Of a DNA stretch of 41,157 bases, positions 2,490 through 38,211 are shown one piece after another. Origin of the DNA: a virus (lineage: Duplodnaviria; Heunggongvirae; Uroviricota; Caudoviricetes); the IMG/VR virus record IMGVR_UViG_2648501336_000006, positions 1 through 41,157 of that record. The stretch is one strand, 5' to 3'. Each line of letters starts with the position of its first letter. The stretch's first letter is position 1. Both the position numbers and the translations under genes were made by a program. Under the pieces are notes generated by a model that searched no databases, was not told the origin of the DNA, and saw nothing but the letters and a program-made list of their open reading frames with translations.

Positions 2490-2685
2490 TTCTGATCCTC
2501 TTCAAAAGGCTACCTGTTACTGGTCGATTTAAGTCAACCTTTACCGCTGATTCGTGGAACAGATACTCTCTTCCATCCTTAACCGGAGGAGGGAATATCC
2601 TGCACTCGCGTACCCATCGACGAACTGTTTCAAGGCTTCTTGGGCGTCGCTGGCGTGCGTTCCACTCCTGAAGTGTCAAGTACAT
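2467..2685 (-). CDS. xis: Excisionase Xis, 72 aa
   Basis: Sequence MYLTLQEWNARQRRPRSLETVRRWVRECRIFPPP recognised as lambda Xis; 3' end overlaps int start as in lambda. Confidence 0.95.
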   Translation of the reverse strand: MYLTLQEWNARQRRPRSLETVRRWVRECRIFPPPVKDGREYLFHESAVKVDLNRPVTGSLLKRIRNGKKAKS

Positions 2686-2712
2686 CGCAAAGTCTCCGCA
2701 ATTACACGCAAT

Positions 2713-2736
2713 AAAAAACCGCCATCAGGCGGCTTG
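2713..2736 (-). terminator. Intrinsic terminator-like hairpin (GCCGCC-TGAT-GGCGG then T-run on minus strand) just upstream of xis
   Basis: Minus-strand sequence AAGCCGCCTGATGGCGGTTTTTTATT; GC stem followed by a run of 6 T. Confidence 0.55.
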
Positions 2737-2892
2737 GTGTTCTTTCAGTTCTTCAATTCGAATATTGGTTACGTCTGCATGTGCTATCTGCGCCCATATC
2801 ATCCAGTGGTCATAGCAGTCGTTGATGTTCTCTGCTTCGATAACTCTGTTGAATGGCTCTCCATTCCATTCACCTGTCACCCGGAAGTGCAT
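2725..2892 (-). CDS. Small hypothetical protein (55 aa, MHFRVTGEWNGEPFNRVIEAENINDCYDHW...)
   Basis: ATG start preceded by GGAG Shine-Dalgarno about 7 nt upstream; not in the ORF track (below 60 aa); translated by hand. Confidence 0.4.
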   Translation of the reverse strand: MHFRVTGEWNGEPFNRVIEAENINDCYDHWMIWAQIAHADVTNIRIEELKEHQAA

Positions 2893-2964
2893 TTATCATC
2901 TCCATAAAACAAAACCCGCCGTAGCGAGTTCAGATAAAAGAAATCCCCGCGAGTGCGAGGATTG

Positions 2965-3249
2965 TTATTCATTGCCGATATTCACCTTTATCGCGAACAC
3001 CTTTACCGGTTTATCACCGAAGTGTGGATGTGTGATTGTTTTTATTTCATATCCGTTATACGGGACGTCAATTCTGCGACTGAAGTCTTCGCGCTTCGGA
3101 TATCCCTTTGTGATAATCAGGCGGTCATACTTACGGTTAACGAGGCGCTTATTCCAGTAGTCATTACACAGGCGATACTCTTCCGTTTTATCTCCGCGAA
3201 TCATGGCATCGAAGTATTCACCTTTGACGGCAAGTTGCAGGTTAGCCAC
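2965..3249 (-). CDS. Hypothetical early protein (94 aa), GTG start
   Basis: GTG start with AGGAGG 6 nt upstream; overlaps the stop of the upstream gene (translational coupling). Confidence 0.6.
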   Translation of the reverse strand: MANLQLAVKGEYFDAMIRGDKTEEYRLCNDYWNKRLVNRKYDRLIITKGYPKREDFSRRIDVPYNGYEIKTITHPHFGDKPVKVFAIKVNIGNE

Positions 3250-4114
3250 GGTTAACCTCCTGCGGCGGCTCCGGTAGCGGCATCCAGTGGGTTACTTTCG
3301 ATGCCGGTTCTTCCCCATCGTCAGTAACTGCCCACCATTTGTTTCTCGACCAATCGTAATACCCTTCGAAGGTATCGCACTCAGTCCAGCCGTAAGACTT
3401 CCCCCAACACCAAACATACTGTTTATCGTTCGGCATTCGCTCACTACAGCTTATCCAACCATCCGGAGTTACCGGAGAGTTGCCTGCCAGTCTACGCAAA
3501 ACAGCCTTAACAGCCTCAATACGGTCATCATCGTAACTTTCCGCCGTATCTATGCGGTCGAGCATGATGATTGCGTTATCAATATCAGGATTGCCGGTCC
3601 ACTCATTACCGCGATTGGATTCGGCAGCCTGGTTGCCGCGTACTGGTTGATTGTCGGCTTTACCCAGTCTGTCGTCGCTGCATGAATGCCCTTCCAGCCA
3701 GGCCAATGCTTGTCGCATGAAATACGCAATATGTTTGCCGTGGTAATCGTCTTCATCGATGTGAAAAGCGATACTACGAATGTATTCAATTGCGTTTTCA
3801 ATGGCCTCTAACGCTATCGGCGCTGGCGGAGTGGTGTATAGTTTTCGACATTTGTATATCCAACCGGCATGGTCAGGCGTGTCTGTAAAACGCAAATCGT
3901 CTTCGTAGCACTCACGACTACGTTCTTTCCATTCCGTCCACGGAACACCGCTATTCCAGGTGGGGCGAGTGCAGGACTGATACAGAACAGGCTCTGCTTC
4001 CAGCGATGCCAGTGCGATTTCATAAGCACGGCGCTCAATATCGTCTCGCACGTCCAGGCTGCCGATTCGCTCTTTGATTTCTTTAATCAGTTCTTTGTCG
4101 GTAAAAGTGCTCAT
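3242..4114 (-). CDS. Phage protein with C-terminal DUF551-like domain (290 aa from internal ATG)
   Basis: ORF track entry starts at TTG; internal ATG at 4114 has AAGGAGA SD; C-terminal W/Y-rich segment ending HWMPLPEPP resembles DUF551. Confidence 0.65.
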   Translation of the reverse strand: MSTFTDKELIKEIKERIGSLDVRDDIERRAYEIALASLEAEPVLYQSCTRPTWNSGVPWTEWKERSRECYEDDLRFTDTPDHAGWIYKCRKLYTTPPAPIALEAIENAIEYIRSIAFHIDEDDYHGKHIAYFMRQALAWLEGHSCSDDRLGKADNQPVRGNQAAESNRGNEWTGNPDIDNAIIMLDRIDTAESYDDDRIEAVKAVLRRLAGNSPVTPDGWISCSERMPNDKQYVWCWGKSYGWTECDTFEGYYDWSRNKWWAVTDDGEEPASKVTHWMPLPEPPQEVNRG

Positions 4115-14740: not shown

Positions 14741-15455
14741 GTTAATAAATGGCAATGCCATCAAAATGACAAGCATTGAAATCGCTGAGTTGGTGGGTAA
14801 GCGTCATGACAATGTGAAACGTACCATCGAAACGCTGGCTAAAAATGGTGTTATCCGGCTTCCTCAAATTGAGGTTTCCGAAAGAATCAATAACTTAGGG
14901 TTCAATGTTCAGTACGAGCATTACGTCTTCGAAGGCGAACAAGGTAAGCGAGATAGTATTGTTGTTGTTGCCCAGTTGTCGCCAGAGTTCACCGCTCGCC
15001 TTGTTGACCGCTGGCGAGAGCTTGAAGAAGCTGCGGTTAATATCCCCAACACGCTACCAGAAGCGTTGCGCCTTGCTGCTGACCTTGCTGAGCAGAAAAT
15101 GCAACTGGAAAACCAGCTCGCAATTGCCGCACCTAAAGTTGAGTTTGCCGATCGCGTTGGCGAGGCCAGCGGAATTTTGATTGGAAACTTTGCAAAGGTT
15201 GTTGGAATTGGTCCAAACAAACTGTTTGCGTGGATGCGCGATCACAAAATTCTTATTGCTTCAGGTTCCCGGCGAAATGTGCCAATGCAGGAATATATGG
15301 ATCGCGGCTATTTCACAGTGAAAGAAACAGCGGTCAACACAAATCACGGAATACAGATATCGTTCACCACAAAAATCACCGGGCGTGGTCAACAGTGGCT
15401 GACCAGAAAGCTGCTCGATAACGGAATGCTGAAAGTAACAGGGGAGGCTGCTTAA
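14733..15455 (+). CDS. Rha/KilAC-domain phage regulatory protein (Roi-like), 240 aa
   Basis: N-terminal MTSIEIAELVGKRHDNVKRTIE typical of Rha-type DNA-binding proteins; nin-region position. Confidence 0.6.
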   Translation: MNELINGNAIKMTSIEIAELVGKRHDNVKRTIETLAKNGVIRLPQIEVSERINNLGFNVQYEHYVFEGEQGKRDSIVVVAQLSPEFTARLVDRWRELEEAAVNIPNTLPEALRLAADLAEQKMQLENQLAIAAPKVEFADRVGEASGILIGNFAKVVGIGPNKLFAWMRDHKILIASGSRRNVPMQEYMDRGYFTVKETAVNTNHGIQISFTTKITGRGQQWLTRKLLDNGMLKVTGEAA

Positions 15456-29996: not shown

Positions 29997-31340
29997 ATGG
30001 CTACTTGGCAACAAGGAATCAACTCAGGCGGTTTTCTTGCTGGCATTGGTGCGCAAAACGAGAATGCGCCAAAGGCAAGCGACGTTAACGCAACGCTTGG
30101 TCTGATCCGCGAAAACAATGAACTGGCTCGCTCAGGTGCAAATAACGTTGGTCTGACCGCGTTACGTGGTCTGGCTGGAGTTGCTGATATTTATAAGCAG
30201 GAACAGCAACAGAAAGCGATTAATGCGTTCAATAAGGTTCATGCTGATGCATGGGCTTCTGGTGATCCATCGGGACTATTTAAGTTTGCCCAGGAAAATC
30301 CAGCGTTTGTTGCACAGGCACAACAGGCATTTTCCGGTCTTAATGAGCAGCAACGCAACGATATGGGCGATTTAGCCATGAGGGCTAACGTCGCTCTTTC
30401 TCAGGGACCGGAAGCCTACAGTAAATTCATTACTGACAACAAGGACAGGTTAAATCGCGTGGGAGCGAATGCTGACTGGATGATTCAGACAGGTATTCAG
30501 AATCCAGAGCAGCTATCACACATGCTGACCACTATGACGCTAGGGGCTGTTGGCCCGGATAAAATGCTGGATTATCAGGATAAGATGGTTGGTCGCCAAC
30601 TTGAGAAAGGGCGATTGGATGAAAGCATCCGTCAGGCTGACATGGAGAACGCGAGAGGATGGGCAAATATCCAAAACGCTCAACTAGACAGGGCTCAGCG
30701 GGCACAAATGCACTCAGATGAGATGGGATTGAAGCTAATGGAGCTGGGGCAAAAAGGTAAGCCGTCAGCAGACTTAATTAAGGGATTAAATTCTGATATT
30801 ACCAATTTTGGCAAAAATTATAACTCTGTCAGAGCGGCGGCAAACTCTCTGCAAGCCCTTAGCAAGGTAAATACTGGCGCTGCCCAACTTGGGATTATCT
30901 TTAATTACATGAAGTCTCTCGACCCTCAGTCAGTTGTTCGCGAAGGTGAACAGGTTCAGGTCATGCGCTCTGATGGCATATGGGGGCAGATAAAAGGATA
31001 TGTAGACCAGCTTAATGCAGGGAATGGCTTGTCACAGGAAGCGAGGGATAACATTGTTAACGCAGCCAAAATTAACGCCAACGCTATGGGGCAGCAGTTT
31101 AACCAGCAGGTAGACGAATATCTGGATACGTATGGAGATACTATTCCTCAAGGGCTGAAAAAAAGCTTAGGGAGAAGGAAGGCCAAGCTATTTGACGATG
31201 TCCCAGCGCAGCCTACACCACAAGGTGGTAATGGGCAGACAAAAGCTGCGCCAAGTGGGATATCAGAAGGCGCGACGGCAACGAACCCTAAAACTGGTCA
31301 GAAACTCATTTATAGGAACGGACAATGGCAACCGATGTAG
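29997..31340 (+). CDS. Ejection protein (gp20-like), 447 aa
   Basis: N-terminus [12 protein letters not shown] resembles P22 gp20 as recalled; position. Confidence 0.75.
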
Positions 31341-33493
31341 GTTTACCCGAAGGATTTGTTCTCGATAATCAGCCTGATAACTCACAGCTTCCTGATGGTT
31401 TTGTGCTTGATTCCCAACCAGAACAGCAGCAATCTCCTTTGGTTTCACCAGAGGAAAATTCCCGACAGGAAAATGTTGTTAATAATGCTAACGGTTTCGA
31501 CCGTTTTATGTATGGCGTTCTCAGTGGATTGATGGATGTTGGTAAAGGTGTTGGCCTGTTTCAGGATATGACACCAGAAGAGCAAGCCGCAATTCAGTCT
31601 CTACAGCAGAAGTTAGCGGCAAAACCATCAACCGCACAAGATGTTGGTGAGTTCGTTGGACAAGCAGCGCCATTTGTTAGTGGCGGTGGGATTATTTCTC
31701 AGGTTCCCAAAGGGGCGGCAAGGCTGGCTGCCGCCGCAGGGCTTGGTGCGGTTGAAGGTGGTGTTGTTGCTAACGGAACCGGTGGCAATGTAACTACAGG
31801 GGCGACTATAGGTGCTGCCGCTGGTCCAATTGCTGAATTGGCATCTCCAGTGATTAGTAAAGCAGTCAGTGCGGTTACGAAGAGGTTTAGGCCTCCATCG
31901 GCAGAAATGTCTCAGGCATCTGAACTTAGTGGAATGGCGAAGGTTGCAACGAAAGCTACAGATGTGAATCCAATAACAGGAAACAGATCTGGTTTGAATG
32001 CTCTCGCGGAAGCTGTTTCACCAGATGATTCTGTGCTACAGGCCGCCCGCAATCTTGGGATGGAGGATGCCTTAACTCCCGGCATGTACTCCAGCAACCC
32101 TTCTTACCGCGCGTTTGAAAATGCTTTAGCTGCAACCCCAGGTAATAAACTGTTCCACGCACAGAGAGAGGCCATTAGTAGGCTTGGAGAGCAGGCAGAT
32201 AAATTTATTAATGATTTTGGTGGGAGCGTTGATAAGGACTTTATCAATCAAAAGGTAAAAAGCTCTTATGAGGAGTTAAGATCAAAACTGAAGCGCCAAG
32301 AAGACACTCTATACAATCAAATTAGAGCAAAAATTCCAACCAGAGCTACCGTAGATACCTCCCATACCACTAACGCCATTGAGGATATTGCAGATGATGT
32401 CGGTGGGCTAGAAAAACTAAAATCTCTATATCCTCAACTGTCAAAGACCTTGGAACAAATAGACCCAAACACCGCCCCGACTTATGGTCTTCTTGATGCA
32501 GTTCGACGGCAGGTTGGAAGGGCTCTTGGCAAAGAGATGGATAAAGGGCCATATAGCGGCATCGACGCTCGGCACCTTGGAATTCTTGAAAGCGCACTGA
32601 TACAAGATCAAGGAGCCGCTGCTGCCAAATATGGTGCAGAGGATACATGGAATTTAGCTAGAGAGATCGGGAGAAAGAGATTCGCAGTACAGGCAGCCGC
32701 CATTCAAAATCTTGGCAGAGACCTGGATAAAGGAATAGTGCCGCAATTGCAGCAAGCTATCGTCGACATGTCTCAAGGAAAGGGCGGTGACTTCCGTCGC
32801 CTAGTTTCAAATCTTCCTGATGACATGGTGCAACCAGCTGTTGCCACCGCAATGAATAGGGCTTTCACTACGTTCGCTAAATCTCCCGGGCAGTCACTCG
32901 GTGTTCCTGGATTTGTTAAGTGGTATGGAGGTCTATCAAGAAACAAATCAAATATGCAGGCATTGAGCCGGGCAATTGGCTATCCGGCTACGCGTAGGTT
33001 GAGAAACATCTATGAGGTGGCTTCTGGCATGCAAAGGGTGGGCAGCGAGAAGGTGTATTCCTCCTCTCAAATTGACCGGATGATGAATCAGTTCGCAGGA
33101 GAGAAGGGAATGCTTGGGCGTATATATGGAATAGGAAAAGACGTGGCTAAAGCAGAGGGGCTAACCACTGCCATCGGAGCGCCGGGAGCCGGTACGGCAG
33201 GAGTACTCTTTAGCCTACTCCGTTCTGGTAAAAACTCAAGAATGGCTGCCGCTGATGAATTAATAGCATCTCCGGCTTTTAAAAATCTCTCAAAAAGGAT
33301 TGCCGCAGGTCACGCCAGCACTCCAGCCTCTAGGAAATCGGTGGATGCTTCAATGAAGAAAGTGAAACCATATAGGGATTGGGTAAATACGCTATCAGCG
33401 GACGAGAAGAAAAATCTAGCCCGCGTTGGTATTGTCGCTTTTCTCAGTAGTAACGATTCTTTGCCCACAGAGCAACAAGCAGGGCAACAATAA
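31325..33493 (+). CDS. Ejection protein (gp16-like), 722 aa
   Basis: Position after gp20; large low-complexity protein; overlaps gp20 stop. Confidence 0.7.
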
Positions 33494-33838: not shown

Positions 33839-34219
33839 ACCAACCTCCAACCTCCTTAGTTTTGAGCAGGATACCAGATGATACTTTATTGGTGGAGTGG
33901 TGTGTGAAAACGTGTCAACGACAAACCATCCACAACTTGGACGAATGATTTAGCAAAAAGTGCTATTTTTGGTGTTTAGTGTCATAGAAAAGTGAATAGC
34001 TCACTTTTCAACATTGCATGAAACTTGCAGGAAATGTGACATTACCTTATAGGTAACTTCGGCGAAAATGCAGTAAATGTGAAACGTAATGATTTAAACG
34101 TGTCGAGAAAGTGGTTGTAAGTTAGCCTCTGAAGGATTGATGACAGCTTTGTTATGGTATTAAATGCAACTTGACACAGTTGTATACATAGCTGCGGCTA
34201 TCAAGATGGAGGTATGTTT

Positions 34220-34663
34220 ATGCTCACTTGTTTTGATGTCGCCGACTACTTCTTGGCGCATTGCGATGAAGAAAGTGGCGACATTATCTCTAACCTAAAA
34301 ATTCAGAAGTTGACGTATTATGCCCAAGGGTTTTCTCTGGTTCTTCTGGGTAAGCCGCTATTTAATGAGAAAATTGAAGCCTGGATGCATGGGCCAGTAG
34401 TTCCTGAATTGTATCGTAAATATAGGGACTGTGGTAACGGAGCTTTACCTGCGCCAGAAAACTTTGACGCTAAAAAATTCAGTGAAGATGAAATTGAATT
34501 GCTGGATGAGGTGTATAAAGTTTATGGTCAGTTTTCTGCCTGGAAACTGCGCAATATGACTCACGAAGAGCAGCCATGGAAAGATGCTTACATTGAGGGT
34601 GCGGTTAGCCAAGAAATCACACTTGATTCTATGAAAGGTTTTTTCAAAACGTTAATTAACTGA
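34220..34663 (+). CDS. Panacea (DUF4065)-like domain protein, putative antitoxin-type component, 147 aa
   Basis: Motifs KIQKLTYYAQGFSL...GKPLF.E.IEAWMHGPVVPELY recalled as typical of DUF4065/GepA/SocA-like proteins; GGAGG SD 7 nt upstream of ATG 34220. Confidence 0.55.
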   Translation: MLTCFDVADYFLAHCDEESGDIISNLKIQKLTYYAQGFSLVLLGKPLFNEKIEAWMHGPVVPELYRKYRDCGNGALPAPENFDAKKFSEDEIELLDEVYKVYGQFSAWKLRNMTHEEQPWKDAYIEGAVSQEITLDSMKGFFKTLIN

Positions 34664-34668
34664 CGTGT

Positions 34669-35091
34669 ATGTCTAGAGTTAAGGGAAGAATAAAACAGAG
34701 GGATAAAGAGAGCTCTGCTACTGTTGGCCTCTCTATCCATCACGAATCTCATGATGTAGACAAAAGTCCGCCTGTATTTTCTCTTAGATACCTACAAAAG
34801 GGGTATTGCCTGGATTGCTGCCAAAAGCATGAAAAGGCAGCATTTGCAGATAGGCTGTTCAGGTTAAGTCAGATGTCATGGGATGAGATACGAAAATCTG
34901 ATAAACACGGACTTGGGACGGAAAAAATTGCCAGAAACGCGATAAAGGCTCCGATTCCTAAGCATGTTACTCAAGATGTGGATTTCATTGCGTTCAGGTT
35001 TTGCTCTAAGGCACCTATGGTTGGTTATAAGATTGGAGCCACTTTTTATGTCTTATGGCTCGACAGGGAGTTCAAGCTATACAAGCACTAA
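34669..35091 (+). CDS. Unknown 140-aa basic protein, operon partner of the Panacea-like gene
   Basis: ATG 5 nt after the upstream stop; followed by a terminator; no domain recognised. Confidence 0.55.
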   Translation: MSRVKGRIKQRDKESSATVGLSIHHESHDVDKSPPVFSLRYLQKGYCLDCCQKHEKAAFADRLFRLSQMSWDEIRKSDKHGLGTEKIARNAIKAPIPKHVTQDVDFIAFRFCSKAPMVGYKIGATFYVLWLDREFKLYKH

Positions 35092-35095
35092 TAAA

Positions 35096-35122
35096 ACCCA
35101 CCGTCAGGTGGGTTTTTTATCT
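35096..35122 (+). terminator. Intrinsic terminator after the two-gene cargo operon (hairpin shared with convergent gene)
   Basis: ACCCACC-GTCA-GGTGGGT followed by TTTTTTAT. Confidence 0.75.
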
Positions 35123-35370
35123 TCTCCGTACATGCTGCTGAGAGTCTTAAGAAGAGCCTCCCTAAATTTTTCAGATTCTTGTTGAGCAAAACCTTCTATC
35201 GATCTTGGTGATTTTTCTTCATCAATAGCGGCTTGCAAGATCATAACTATTTCTGAATTTAATGAACGACCGTTTCTCGATGCCCTTATGGTCAAGTCGC
35301 GCTTGAGGCTATCTGGCATTCTTACGCTATATGGGGCTATGTCTCTAACCTTTGTTTTCATCGTTGCCAT
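35104..35370 (-). CDS. Ribbon-helix-helix (Arc/Mnt family) DNA-binding protein, 88 aa
   Basis: RMPDSLKRDLTIRASRNGRSLNSEIV motif (NGRS.NSEI) characteristic of Arc/Mnt RHH repressors. Confidence 0.7.
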   Translation of the reverse strand: MATMKTKVRDIAPYSVRMPDSLKRDLTIRASRNGRSLNSEIVMILQAAIDEEKSPRSIEGFAQQESEKFREALLKTLSSMYGEDKKPT

Positions 35371-35602
35371 ACATGCATTTCAACTTCTCAACATCATGCT
35401 CAAGATCTATCAATCGTGATGCTATAGTTGCAAGATCTAGTGCTTGAATGTGTTTGTTTTTTTCGGTCCATGCTTCAAGTGCTGCGACCATCTCAGCATT
35501 TAATGAACGAGAATTAGCCTCAGCCAGTTCAATAAGACGTTCCTTTATCTCTACAGGAAGCCTCAGATTCACTTGAGGGTTTTTGTACTTACGATCAGAC
35601 AT
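35345..35602 (-). CDS. Mnt-like ribbon-helix-helix repressor, 85 aa (positional mnt)
   Basis: NLRLPVEIKERLIELAEANSRSLNAEMV; divergent from the arc-ant promoter; overlaps downstream RHH gene by 26 nt. Confidence 0.7.
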   Translation of the reverse strand: MSDRKYKNPQVNLRLPVEIKERLIELAEANSRSLNAEMVAALEAWTEKNKHIQALDLATIASRLIDLEHDVEKLKCMYGNDENKG

Positions 35603-35648
35603 CGGCGCATCCTGAATAAATTTTTACCACAGGATATGTAGGTATCTA

Positions 35649-35677
35649 TTGACTATCAATGCGTACCTAAATACTAT
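35649..35677 (+). promoter_or_regulatory. Pant-like promoter (TTGACT-17-TACTAT) with flanking imperfect palindromes
   Basis: Hexamers at 35649-35654 and 35672-35677; repeated GCGTACC motifs nearby. Confidence 0.55.
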
Positions 35678-35707
35678 GTATGCGTACCACATACAACGGA
35701 GGACGCA

Positions 35708-35848
35708 ATGAAGGTAAAAACACTGCGTATGCCAGAGAAGTTAGAAAAAATCCTTGAAGAGAAAGCAAAGGAAGAGTGTCGCTCATTTAGCGCAGAAGTA
35801 ATTAAACGGGTGATGGACAGCCTGAAGAGAGAGGGGATAACGGTGTGA
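35708..35848 (+). CDS. Arc-like ribbon-helix-helix repressor, 46 aa
   Basis: Hand-translated MKVKTLRMPEKLEKILEEKAKEECRSFSAEVIKRVMDSLKREGITV; GGAGG SD 6 nt upstream; below ORF-track cutoff. Confidence 0.6.
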   Translation: MKVKTLRMPEKLEKILEEKAKEECRSFSAEVIKRVMDSLKREGITV

Positions 35849-36080
35849 TTCGCTTGGATGCAGTAGTCAAAGAGATTGCGATTACCATTTTAAGACCAAA
35901 TTTTGTTCATGGCGAATCATTTGGCACGAACGAAAAATTGAGAAGAGAAAGAGTATTCAGTGGCAAGCGCACGTTTTCAGAAGTGATGCTTGATGCGGCA
36001 AAGAAATCAAAACAGTGAAGCCCCAACTGCTGGAACAGTCAGGGCTTCGGTTGTCGGTAAATCCGTGGAGAAAAACCAAC

Positions 36081-36983
36081 ATGAATAGTATAGCAATTTT
36101 AGAAGCAGTGAACACCTCTTACGTACCATTCAACGGTCAGCAAATTATCACCGCCATGGCTGCCGGAGTTGCATATGTTGCGATGAAGCCAATCGTTGAA
36201 AACCTTGGAATGAGCTGGTCAACGCAGCAAACAAAACTCATGAAGCAGATTAGCAAATTCAACTGTGTTCATATGAACATGGTTGCCGCTGATGGAAAGC
36301 TTCGTAAGCTACTCTGCCTTCCTTTGAAGAAGTTAAATGGATGGCTGTTCAGCATCAACCCTGAGAAAGTTCGTGCTGACATCCGCGATAAACTGATTCA
36401 GTACCAGGAAGAATGCTTTACTGTGCTGCATGACTACTGGACAAAGGGAAAGGCAGAAAATACACGTAAGAAAACATCTGTTGATGACAGGACTCCGCTT
36501 CGTGATGCTGTAAATATGCTGGTCAGCAAAAAGCATCTAATGTACCCAGAAGCTTATGCAATGATTCATCAGCGTTTCAATGTGGAAAGTATTGAAGAGC
36601 TTGATGCATCTCAGATACCGCAAGCCGTAGAGTACATCCACAGGGTAGTGCTTGAAGGTGAGTTCATCGGCAAACAAGAGAAGAAAACCAACGAGCTTTC
36701 TGCAAAAGAAGCAAACAGCCTTGTATGGCTATGGGATTATGCCAACCGCTCACAGGCATTATTCCGCGAACTGTATCCGGCATTAAAACAAATTCAATCG
36801 AACTATTCCGGCAGATGTCATGACTGCGGTTATGAGTTCTCCCGTATTATCGATATAGCGAGAGACGTTTTAATTAATCACACACGAGATGTTGATATCA
36901 ATGAGCCAGACGGACCAACGAATCTTTCCGCATGGATGAGGCTTAAGAATAAAGAATTGCCGCCTTCTGTTCATCTGTATTAA
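36081..36983 (+). CDS. ant: Antirepressor Ant (P22 Ant type), 300 aa
   Basis: ORF track start is GTG; ATG at 36081 gives 300 aa, the P22 Ant length; N-terminus [22 protein letters not shown] recalled as P22 Ant. Confidence 0.8.
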
Positions 36984-37066
36984 TGACGCATCTGGCGGTG
37001 AAAAAAACCGCCAGTGTGCTGCTGGCGGCCTATGTCACACCCTTACTACCACATAAGGAATGCCTA

Positions 37067-37795
37067 ATGACTTTTAAGAATGTAGCAAACATCGGATCCG
37101 TTGTCACGGATAAAACCATTGACAGCCAGCGCCTGCTTGAGATGGTAAATCAGGCTCGTAGACAGTGCGGTGAGCCGGAGGTTCGTAATAACAAATTCAT
37201 CGAGAAAATTGAAGATGAATTGGATGGAGAGCACTACACAAAAAGTGTAGTGCAAAAAGCGAACAAAACTTCGATGGTTATCATTGAGATGTCAATCAAG
37301 CAAGCATTGCGAGTTGCCGCTCGCGAGTCAAAAGCCGTTCGCCGCTCACTGGTAGACCAACTTGAAAGTATGCAAGAAGCGCACATTAAAAGCGGTAAAT
37401 CAGCGAGTGGACTTGTTGAGTATCGTCAAGCGCGAACATTGAAAATGACGGTTGAAGCTGTTACCAATCTGTTCGATCTGATGCCAAATCTTGCGCCGGA
37501 AGCAAAGCAGACTGCTGCAGCAAGCATAATCAACCCGCTCGTTGGTTTTAATGCAATACCTCTTCCGGCAATAGAAGAGCATTACTACTCAGCAGGGGAG
37601 GTTGCAGAGCAGCTTGGAGTAACGGCCAACAAGATTGGTCGCATTGCTAACGCAAACAACCTCAAAACTGAGCAGTACGGGAAGTTCTTCCTGGATAAAT
37701 CTGCGCATTCCAGCAAACAGGTGGAAGCATTCCGCTACAATGAGGAAGGCGTTAAAGCACTACAACACCTGCTACATGGCTCAAATGTGGCGTAA
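37067..37795 (+). CDS. Hypothetical protein downstream of ant (242 aa)
   Basis: ATG at 37067 with AAGGAA SD; followed by a bidirectional terminator; no domain recognised. Confidence 0.5.
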   Translation: MTFKNVANIGSVVTDKTIDSQRLLEMVNQARRQCGEPEVRNNKFIEKIEDELDGEHYTKSVVQKANKTSMVIIEMSIKQALRVAARESKAVRRSLVDQLESMQEAHIKSGKSASGLVEYRQARTLKMTVEAVTNLFDLMPNLAPEAKQTAAASIINPLVGFNAIPLPAIEEHYYSAGEVAEQLGVTANKIGRIANANNLKTEQYGKFFLDKSAHSSKQVEAFRYNEEGVKALQHLLHGSNVA

Positions 37796-37814
37796 CATTT
37801 TATAATGAAAACTA

Positions 37815-37840
37815 AACCCGCTTAATCGCGGGTTTTTTCT
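37815..37840. terminator. Bidirectional terminator hairpin between the ant-region gene and the convergent Mnt-like gene
   Basis: ACCCGC-TTAATC-GCGGGT followed by TTTTTTCTTTCC on plus; A/T-rich on the other side. Confidence 0.65.
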
Positions 37841-38079
37841 TTCCTTAGAATTTCAGCCGCAACTTCTTTTACTCGTTCCGAGATTAATGAGGCCAGCCTC
37901 TCTTCTTCATCACGATACCCGCTTACAGGTGATGGTTTGGAGAGTGATTCTTCCATCGTAGCCACAATTTCGGAATTGATAGACCTGTTATTCATTTTTG
38001 CACGCTGCTTAATCTTAGCGTGCAACTCGTGTGTAAGCCTCAAGTGGAACTGCGCCTCATCGTATTTGCTGTACATCAT
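37822..38079 (-). CDS. Second Mnt-like ribbon-helix-helix repressor, 85 aa, divergent from the tailspike gene
   Basis: FHLRLTHELHAKIKQRAKMNNRSINSEIVATMEESLSKPSPVSGYRDEEERLA closely parallels P22 Mnt (RSMNSELLQIVQDALSKPSPVTGYRNDAERLA) as recalled. Confidence 0.8.
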   Translation of the reverse strand: MMYSKYDEAQFHLRLTHELHAKIKQRAKMNNRSINSEIVATMEESLSKPSPVSGYRDEEERLASLISERVKEVAAEILRKEKTRD

Positions 38080-38211
38080 CAATGCCTCACCAAATGGGTG
38101 GAATGGCATCGTAAAACCCACTGTACAAATCAACAATCGTACCGTTTCGGTATGTAACAAATGCCAACCGTAGCCATGCTGCGGCCATTCCTTGTATCTG
38201 GAGCAAATTAA

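Follow-up and report, generated by a model that had tools for sequence, protein, structure and literature searches.

The question raised by this locus is what a second mnt gene does behind the first one in a P22-like prophage. The window (the whole stretch of 41,157 nucleotides, IMG/VR record IMGVR_UViG_2648501336_000006, from a virus of the Caudoviricetes) is a complete P22-like (Lederbergvirus) prophage, and its immI region or 'ant moron' occupies 33.5-38.5 kb, between the gene of a gp16-like ejection protein (31325-33493) and the tailspike gene (38212 onward, plus strand). This immI is of the P22 type: it comprises Mnt-like and Arc-like repressors, a P22_AR antirepressor, the sar RNA and divergent overlapping promoters in the gene 16-tailspike position. 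In P22 this arrangement has a single mnt and a single arc, as its annotation confirms and as an earlier note on this DNA had stated. In the window two genes of ribbon-helix-helix (RHH) proteins lie head to tail on the minus strand, the promoter-proximal RHH2 (35345-35602) and the promoter-distal RHH1 (35104-35370), and both are divergent from a 46-aa Arc-like gene on the plus strand (35708-35848). Comparison with related loci identifies the pair as mnt alleles of different origin. The reading towards which we lean, with guarded confidence, is that RHH2 is the cognate Mnt of this region and RHH1 a heterotypic stacked mnt which would repress the antirepressor gene, ant, of heterotypic superinfecting phages in trans.

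Two mnt alleles and their junction

The two minus-strand genes and their 26-nt out-of-frame overlap (35345-35370), described in the earlier note, were recovered as open reading frames (ORFs). RHH2 encodes 85 aa. RHH1 encodes 88 aa from the ATG at 35370 or 85 aa from a second ATG at 35361, which reduces the overlap to 17 nt and is the start chosen by the Prokaryotic Genome Annotation Pipeline in the 99.6%-identical prophage of E. coli LI60C3. The possibility that one of the two is a spurious ORF was ruled out: both score above the Pfam threshold and are annotated genes in RefSeq prophages, and in RHH1-type genes the ratio of nonsynonymous to synonymous substitution rates (dN/dS) is 0.03-0.17.

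The earlier note spoke of an expanded RHH repertoire. There are indeed more RHH genes than in P22, including a third mnt-like gene, Mnt3, at 37822-38079, but the duplication implied by that wording did not hold and stacked heterologous alleles were found instead. A recent tandem duplication was ruled out, since RHH1 and RHH2 share 29% identity overall with poorly aligning C-terminal regions, belong to different PHROGs (2685 and 795, respectively) and are each a stand-alone mnt elsewhere. The RHH1-type protein (99% identity) is the sole promoter-proximal mnt in phage vB_EcoP-611R6 and in 19 IMG/VR loci, each with a divergent arc; in 611R6 and in loci L013-L026 this 99%-identical allele is promoter-adjacent and divergent from arc-ant. 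SEN22, the E. coli O104:H4 prophage and most of 80 IMG/VR loci have an RHH2-type gene as their only mnt. In the window it is RHH2 that lies beside the Pant-like and Pmnt-like promoters, divergent from arc-ant, and RHH1 is second in the operon.

The overlap and junction span 35342-35370. To the left, locus L013, which has the same cargo genes, the same terminator and RHH1 as sole mnt, matches window positions 33847-35355 at 99.5% identity. To the right, RHH2-type loci match the window from 35355 (or 35342) at 95-98%. The two matches meet in a microhomology, AAGGTTAGAGA, which serves both as the end of RHH2 (…AAA GGT TAG) and as codons 7-10 of RHH1 (AAG GTT AGA GAC). These alignments show the tandem genes to be heterologous mnt alleles stacked by mosaic recombination with a breakpoint near 35355, and L013 can be named as the left-hand parent of the recombinant. 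As reconstructed from the parental loci, the crossover stripped RHH1 of its promoter, its operators, its Shine-Dalgarno sequence and its first codons. Neither of the candidate ATGs has a good Shine-Dalgarno sequence and therefore the translation of RHH1, if any, is probably coupled to that of RHH2. A consensus promoter scan found no internal promoter for RHH1 within RHH2. LI60C3 and IMG/VR locus L012 have this very stack, RHH2+RHH1, beside other cargo genes.

Family membership and predicted structure

The four RHH proteins of the region score above the cutoff of the Pfam Arc family (PF03869, 20.4 bits): RHH1 with 35.1 bits, RHH2 with 40.1, the Arc-like protein with 37.0 and Mnt3 with 52.4. Neither of the overlapping ORFs lacks the RHH signature, and the divergent 46-aa Arc-like gene predicted by the earlier note is equally borne out. 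The best PDB sequence match of both tandem proteins is P22 Mnt (1mnt), with E 1.4e-6 for RHH1 and E 2.4e-5 for RHH2.

Mnt-type repressors have about 80-90 aa and a C-terminal helical extension that tetramerises. The AlphaFold monomer models of RHH1 and RHH2 have a mean predicted local distance difference test score (pLDDT) of about 70, with both RHH helices at 84-92 and the N-terminal strand not formed. The RHH fold forms only in the dimer, and a missing strand is expected in models without a partner chain. Both proteins are predicted to have a long C-terminal helix, at 59-81 in RHH1 and at 50-78 in RHH2, and together with the two core helices this would be the layout of Mnt. The top Foldseek matches of the two models were Arc, AmrZ and CopG, with probabilities of 0.9-0.99 and E values above 0.08, which are not significant.

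In the alignment to P22 Mnt and Arc, a check proposed in the earlier note, the contact residues of RHH1 and RHH2 differ from those of P22 Mnt. At the positions of the P22 Mnt contacts R2, H6, N8 and R10, RHH1 has R, P, S and R, and RHH2 has K, Q, N and R. The beta-strand segment of RHH2, YKNPQVNLRLP, carries the Q, N and R contacts as in Arc rather than Mnt. The P22 operators were searched in the window: Omnt (AGGTCCACGGTGGACCT) was not found, even at 3 mismatches, and neither was Oarc. On these residues and sites RHH1 and RHH2 are Arc/Mnt family members of other specificity types and not strict orthologues of P22 Mnt. A recent PDB deposit, 9pio chain G (a 79-aa 'Arc family DNA-binding protein'), is a weak match to RHH2 and Mnt3 (E 0.004-0.014).

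Candidate operators and protein-box pairing

The promoter scan placed a Pant-like promoter on the plus strand at 35649-35677 (-35 TTGACT at 35649-35654, -10 TACTAT at 35672-35677) and a Pmnt-like promoter on the minus strand at 35659-35631 (-35 TTGATA at 35659-35654, -10 TATCCT at 35636-35631). Over them lies a candidate operator array (35638-35695), recognized from repeats and from co-occurrence. It is formed by ATGCGTACC boxes in the plus-strand reading, phased by 21 bp at 35659-35667 and 35680-35688, a degenerate copy at 35638-35646, and the palindrome TGTATGCGTACCACATACA (35677-35695), which is unique in the window; a 21-nt direct repeat and inverted repeats are present in the intergenic region. 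The first box falls within the Pant spacer, the site of Oarc in P22; the second is around +1, within the palindrome, at the place of Omnt; and the degenerate one is over the Pmnt -10.

Protein and boxes travel together. Among RHH2-type loci with 51-100% protein identity the segment YK(N/H)PQVNLRLP and the GGTACG(C/T)AT boxes are both invariant, the GGTACGYAT boxes flank back-to-back -35 elements (TTGATAGTCAA), and the promoter region is nearly invariant. An RHH2 nearest to the promoter is always accompanied by GGTACGCAT boxes phased by 21 bp, and the boxes are missing in L095, where RHH2 is not promoter-proximal. They are kept with an unrelated Arc partner in L160 and L163 (Arc N-terminus MKAQSPSSVRFP). 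RHH2 is probably the cognate Mnt analogue of the window immI and most likely binds the GCGTACC box array. The constancy of the boxes despite an unrelated Arc favours RHH2 as the binder; binding of Arc there as well is possible.

RHH1-type loci have a different set of boxes, with three WCACNGTGW sites within an intergenic region of about 75 bp (at 3273, 3296 and 3332 in L005, and likewise in L013). None of these boxes is present in the window immI or in the cargo promoter region (33851-34213). Chance alone predicts about 2.5 WCACNGTGW matches in the window as a whole; two isolated ones are present, at 15313 and 21074 in coding DNA far from immI, and a search for the palindromes of the 611R6 type (GTGATNATCAC, WCACNGTGW) gave chance-level matches only, outside immI. 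As its boxes are absent from immI, RHH1 is without a recognisable target in cis. As a positive control, P22 (Omnt) and phage L (AAGACCACGGTGGTCTT) have readily visible cognate palindromes beside mnt, and so does Mnt3 of the window (CATACCGAAACGGTACG).

The same region bears on an alternative in which RHH1 and RHH2 both act on their own immI, through a second site in 35603-35707 or as mixed tetramers formed via the C-terminal helices, in a three-repressor circuit tuning Pant and Pmnt. RHH1 and RHH2 share a transcript and are probably produced together, each has a predicted long C-terminal helix like the tetramerisation domain of Mnt, and three phased boxes plus two palindromes are more than two proteins strictly need. 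The box array, however, is identical in many RHH2 loci without RHH1 and holds nothing specific to RHH1, whose own associated box type is absent. An identity of 29% and C-terminal regions that align poorly also speak against this circuit, as does the distal P22-type Mnt of other stacks, which keeps the P22 contact residues without an Omnt. We regard it as improbable.

Recurrence of stacks and selection on the distal copies

Stacking is not confined to the window. It is seen in 17 of the 80 RHH2-type IMG/VR loci, with at least four distal types, and the CUS-3-type junction was identified in 45 of 5426 complete E. coli genomes (UTI89, NU14, IHE3034 and others). The CUS-3/UTI89-type prophages (CP000711) share with the window the proximal RHH2 (94% identity), the intergenic boxes, a 46-aa Arc and a second full-length mnt directly downstream without an operator of its own, the two adjacent genes being both annotated 'mnt'. 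They differ in the distal gene, which in CUS-3 encodes a Mnt of the P22 type (about 80% identity), still has the leader of P22 up to the junction, with its Shine-Dalgarno sequence, and lies 23 nt from RHH2, whereas in the window it is of the 611R6 type, overlaps RHH2 by 17-26 nt and has no Shine-Dalgarno sequence. No functional study of the CUS-3 mnt pair was found in the literature searched. CUS-3 has been described as lacking arc (PMC2629481); an unannotated 46-aa Arc-family gene, 93% identical to that of the window, is present inside the 'bsq2' boundary feature (L003 3367-3507).

The distal genes of these stacks are orphans in the same sense as RHH1. With up to 3 mismatches allowed, P22 Omnt was absent from the whole CUS-3 genome and from 11 of 12 further stacked loci; the exception is L094, where one site with 3 mismatches lies some 1.7 kb upstream of the P22-type mnt. 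The most elaborate arrangement is a triple stack on one strand in L095 (IMGVR_UViG_2541047931_000005, 2495-3536, with gaps of 11 and 23 nt), in which a family-B mnt of 79 aa with boxes of its own is followed by an RHH2 lacking GGTACGCAT boxes and a P22-type mnt lacking Omnt. One and the same junction (L003 2981-3003 in CUS-3) is present in all 13 CUS-3-type stacks, and 13 nt of it, GAAAGTTAGAGAT, are a fossil of the 5' end of a family-B (RHH1-like) mnt. This fossil suggests that a stack of RHH2 with family B came first and that its distal gene was later exchanged for the P22 mnt.

Distal mnt copies are all intact in about 20 loci of at least four types, the triple stack included. In the RHH domain (codons 1-47) of the 13 distal P22-type copies the proportion of synonymous differences (pS) is 0.35 and that of nonsynonymous differences (pN) 0.02 (pN/pS 0.06); variation is greater in the C-terminal part, with a ratio of 0.31 and exchange in blocks. 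The contact segment MARDDPHFNFRMP is unaltered in 11 of the 13 copies, with the exception of L095 (D4N) and L098 (M12I), and R2, H6, N8 and R10 are unaltered in 13 of 13. These values argue for purifying selection on DNA binding in the orphan distal copies of the CUS-3 lineage.

The slot itself has a known use. Directly after mnt is the position of lysogen-expressed cargo, occupied in P22 by orf59a and sieA. In RHH2-type loci without a second mnt it is filled by other genes, among them those of a ClpP-like protein and of small hypothetical proteins, whose start often overlaps the preceding stop as ATGA.

Proposed role of RHH1

The position of RHH1 in the slot for lysogen-expressed cargo is the reason why it is proposed to act in trans. 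The Pmnt-like promoter would drive a single RHH2+RHH1 transcript in the lysogen, ending at the hairpin at 35093-35116. RHH2 would bind the boxes over the Pant spacer and start site and silence arc-orf57-ant-orf270, with the 46-aa Arc-like protein and the sar RNA acting as secondary controls as in P22. RHH1, co-transcribed with RHH2 and without a target in its own genome, would act only on DNA with 611R6-type boxes, and would repress Pant of superinfecting or co-resident phages of that type. With the heterotypic ant silenced, its broad-specificity antirepressor could not induce the resident prophage. Potential targets are common in the host species: of the 5426 E. coli genomes, 318 have an immI core of the 611R6 type and 174 one of the P22 type.

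The selective logic comes from antirepressor cross-talk (Gifsy/Fels; P22 Ant on L, lambda and 21), in which a resident is exposed to an incoming Ant (PMC3121763). The same paper refers to Susskind and Botstein 1975 for the inactivation of the L, lambda and 21 repressors by P22 Ant; it would thus be of benefit to a resident prophage to silence the ant of an incoming heterotypic relative. Those studies are about antirepressors and describe no repressor of an antirepressor as a defence, a step that we infer here. A wider version may be put forward tentatively, as possible and short of probable: orphan foreign mnt alleles would form a trans-acting immunity library, each silencing the antirepressor promoter of another class of superinfecting or co-resident relatives and so shielding the resident from induction by Ant, and the distal slot would be exchanged like a cassette, with the 611R6 type in the window, the P22 type in CUS-3 and three genes in a row in L095.

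Several observations weigh against a function of RHH1 in trans. Its native start and Shine-Dalgarno sequence are lost and it may be poorly translated. The junction of the window type is rare, found only in LI60C3 among the complete E. coli genomes and in one IMG/VR contig. RHH1 is about 99% identical to its stand-alone copies, so the stack is young, too young for selection on the stacked RHH1 to show. The operator assignments are drawn from co-occurrence and position only. The low pN/pS of the CUS-3 lineage could come in part from recombinational import of functional alleles. Finally, in two loci, L164 (2995-3257) and L167 (471-720), the promoter-proximal RHH2 is split into two ORFs by a frameshift or a sequencing error, a sign that decay or faulty sequence occurs in these regions; in L164 the distal P22-type mnt is intact.

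Some of these points are also what one would expect if RHH1 were a neutral by-product of a recent heterotypic immI recombination, functionless and due to decay. The junction removed promoter, operators, Shine-Dalgarno sequence and start, it is confined to that one genome and one contig, and the identity to stand-alone copies has left little time for decay. The ant moron is moreover known for rapid flux (PMC2629481). A precedent for a mnt that has no ant to control is the lone mnt of phage L/ST64T (neither arc nor ant is present), for which the phage L authors left open 'another function', thinking it possibly 'a remnant' (PMC8022706). Phage L mnt and Mnt3 have an Omnt-like palindrome upstream, whereas RHH1 has no recognisable cognate site in immI or in the cargo promoter. 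A by-product would not account easily for the intactness of all distal copies in their several types, for the low pN/pS of the CUS-3-lineage RHH domain at a pS of 0.35 with invariant contact residues, for the persistence of the window-type junction with three different downstream cargos, or for the repeated origin of stacks. We consider neutrality less likely than a role in trans, and the main rival to it.

Literature searches on tandem or second mnt genes gave nothing relevant beyond the description of the ant moron and the remark on phage L, and no paper was found that tests or states a trans-immunity role for an orphan mnt. Tandem mnt genes had already been annotated, in CUS-3, and as far as found were left unexplained. 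New here are the heterotypic nature of the alleles, the lack of cis targets of the distal one, the recurrent cassette-like stacking and, for the distal copies of the CUS-3 lineage, purifying selection.

The convergent cargo operon

The cargo operon (34214-35091, plus strand) is convergent with the mnt operon and comprises a Panacea/SocA-domain gene (34214-34663; PF13274, E 2e-24) and orf140 (34669-35091; 140 aa, phrog_8366, function not assigned). It lies in the sieA slot, resembles a PanA-type antitoxin/toxin pair and is probably a prophage defence or addiction module. The terminator scan identified a bidirectional intrinsic terminator common to both operons at 35093-35116, with the stop codon of RHH1 (35104-35106) in the loop of the hairpin where the cargo operon also ends; the same sequence carries a terminator annotation in phage Emek.

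The earlier note suggested, from this convergence, that RHH1 regulates the cargo or is co-regulated with it. The convergence on the terminator stands; the functional part of the suggestion is not supported. RHH1 might in principle belong to the Panacea/toxin cargo, either regulating its transcription or serving as an RHH antitoxin: the two are adjacent with a common terminator, RHH domains are common in antitoxins (a weak FitA-like match of 34.2 bits was obtained), and L013 has the same cargo beside RHH1. Yet the Panacea/orf140 cargo is present in only 5 of 22 RHH1-type loci and absent from the other 17, it sits beside four different mnt configurations, and the same stack is found without it in L001 and L012. 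The cargo already has an antitoxin-type partner of its own in the Panacea gene. An RHH antitoxin gene would be co-oriented beside its toxin in an operon; the same-strand neighbours of RHH1 are an RHH gene and a terminator, and orf140 is convergent. In SEN22 and 611R6 the mnt gene likewise ends in this hairpin, its stop codon being part of the loop, and the convergence is, by this comparison, the ordinary 3' end of the mnt module. The RHH1 allele and the terminator also go together in 611R6 and in the 19 IMG/VR loci where RHH1 is the only mnt. With 17 of 22 loci lacking the cargo, four mnt configurations beside it and no WCACNGTGW box in its promoter region, a functional link to RHH1 was rejected, and we give the cargo explanation very little credence.

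Other features of the immI region

The window and P22 agree in gene order and orientation, in the overlapping divergent promoters, in having an Mnt-sized RHH gene opposed to an Arc-type gene and ant, in the sar RNA before ant, and in the location of the whole between gene 16 and the tailspike gene. They differ in the number of mnt genes, one in P22 against two in tandem and a third by the tailspike gene in the window, and in the absence from the window of Omnt, Oarc and, in the tandem proteins, of the full R2, H6, N8, R10 set. The Arc of the window is 46 aa long and without the N-terminal arm, and its ant operon has two additional genes, orf57, which has no P22 counterpart, and a second antirepressor.

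The Arc-like gene is the first of the ant operon, with a GGAGG 6 nt upstream of its ATG. Its product (WP_001386205) is identical in the STEC346 and LI60C3 prophages. It is followed by orf57 (35845-36018, plus strand; phrog_17642, E 1e-43), annotated in LI60C3 and without an assigned function. Present in 9 retrieved loci, orf57 begins with a GTG that overlaps the stop codon of arc and ends directly at the sar terminator. The sar antisense RNA (36014-36080, minus strand) was identified over its full length with Rfam RF00262 (83.9 bits, gathering score 43, E 4e-17), with its terminator at 36048-36017. Other Rfam matches were far below their gathering scores and were dismissed: snoR113 at 35313-35369, sroH at 35093-35115 and RyhB at 37786-37841.

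The ant antirepressor gene (36081-36983, plus strand) matches P22_AR_N (E 3e-45) and P22_AR_C (E 1e-28). Its probable start is the ATG at 36081, the mechanical ORF beginning at a GTG at 36015, and a 903-nt homologue is annotated in LI60C3. The start of the second antirepressor-family gene, orf270 (36983-37795, plus strand; phrog_1726 'anti-repressor', E 3e-101), overlaps the ant stop, so that the ant operon encodes two different antirepressors.

Mnt3 (37822-38079, minus strand, 85 aa) is divergent from the tailspike gene and matches P22 Mnt over its full length (E 1e-15, 41% identity). It is 98% identical to its counterpart in JEP4 and 95% to that in VSe13, both in the same position. With its own bidirectional terminator at 37814-37835, it is arranged like the lone mnt found in phage L/ST64T, JEP4 and VSe13. 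The 17-bp near-palindrome CATACCGAAACGGTACG (38138-38154, minus-strand reading) aligns at the position of the Omnt-like palindrome of phage L and is a candidate Mnt3 operator. It has a CGTACC core in common with the RHH2 boxes, and Mnt3 might conceivably cross-talk with the main immI.

Meaning of stacked mnt genes

The pairings of boxes and proteins form a natural specificity series of RHH proteins and DNA: Q/N/R with GGTACGCAT, R/P/S/R with WCACNGTGW and H/N/R with GGTCCACGGTGGACC. Were RHH1 only a recombination scar, the breakpoints and the flux of the ant moron would still be precisely documented. If it acts in trans, a function would be found for the orphan mnt genes of phage L/ST64T and of CUS-3, which have so far had no explanation, and a class of prophage-encoded protection acting on prophage induction rather than on infection would be added to those known. 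The immI region would then be a site of competition of phage against phage, where immunity is extended by collecting the repressors of other types.

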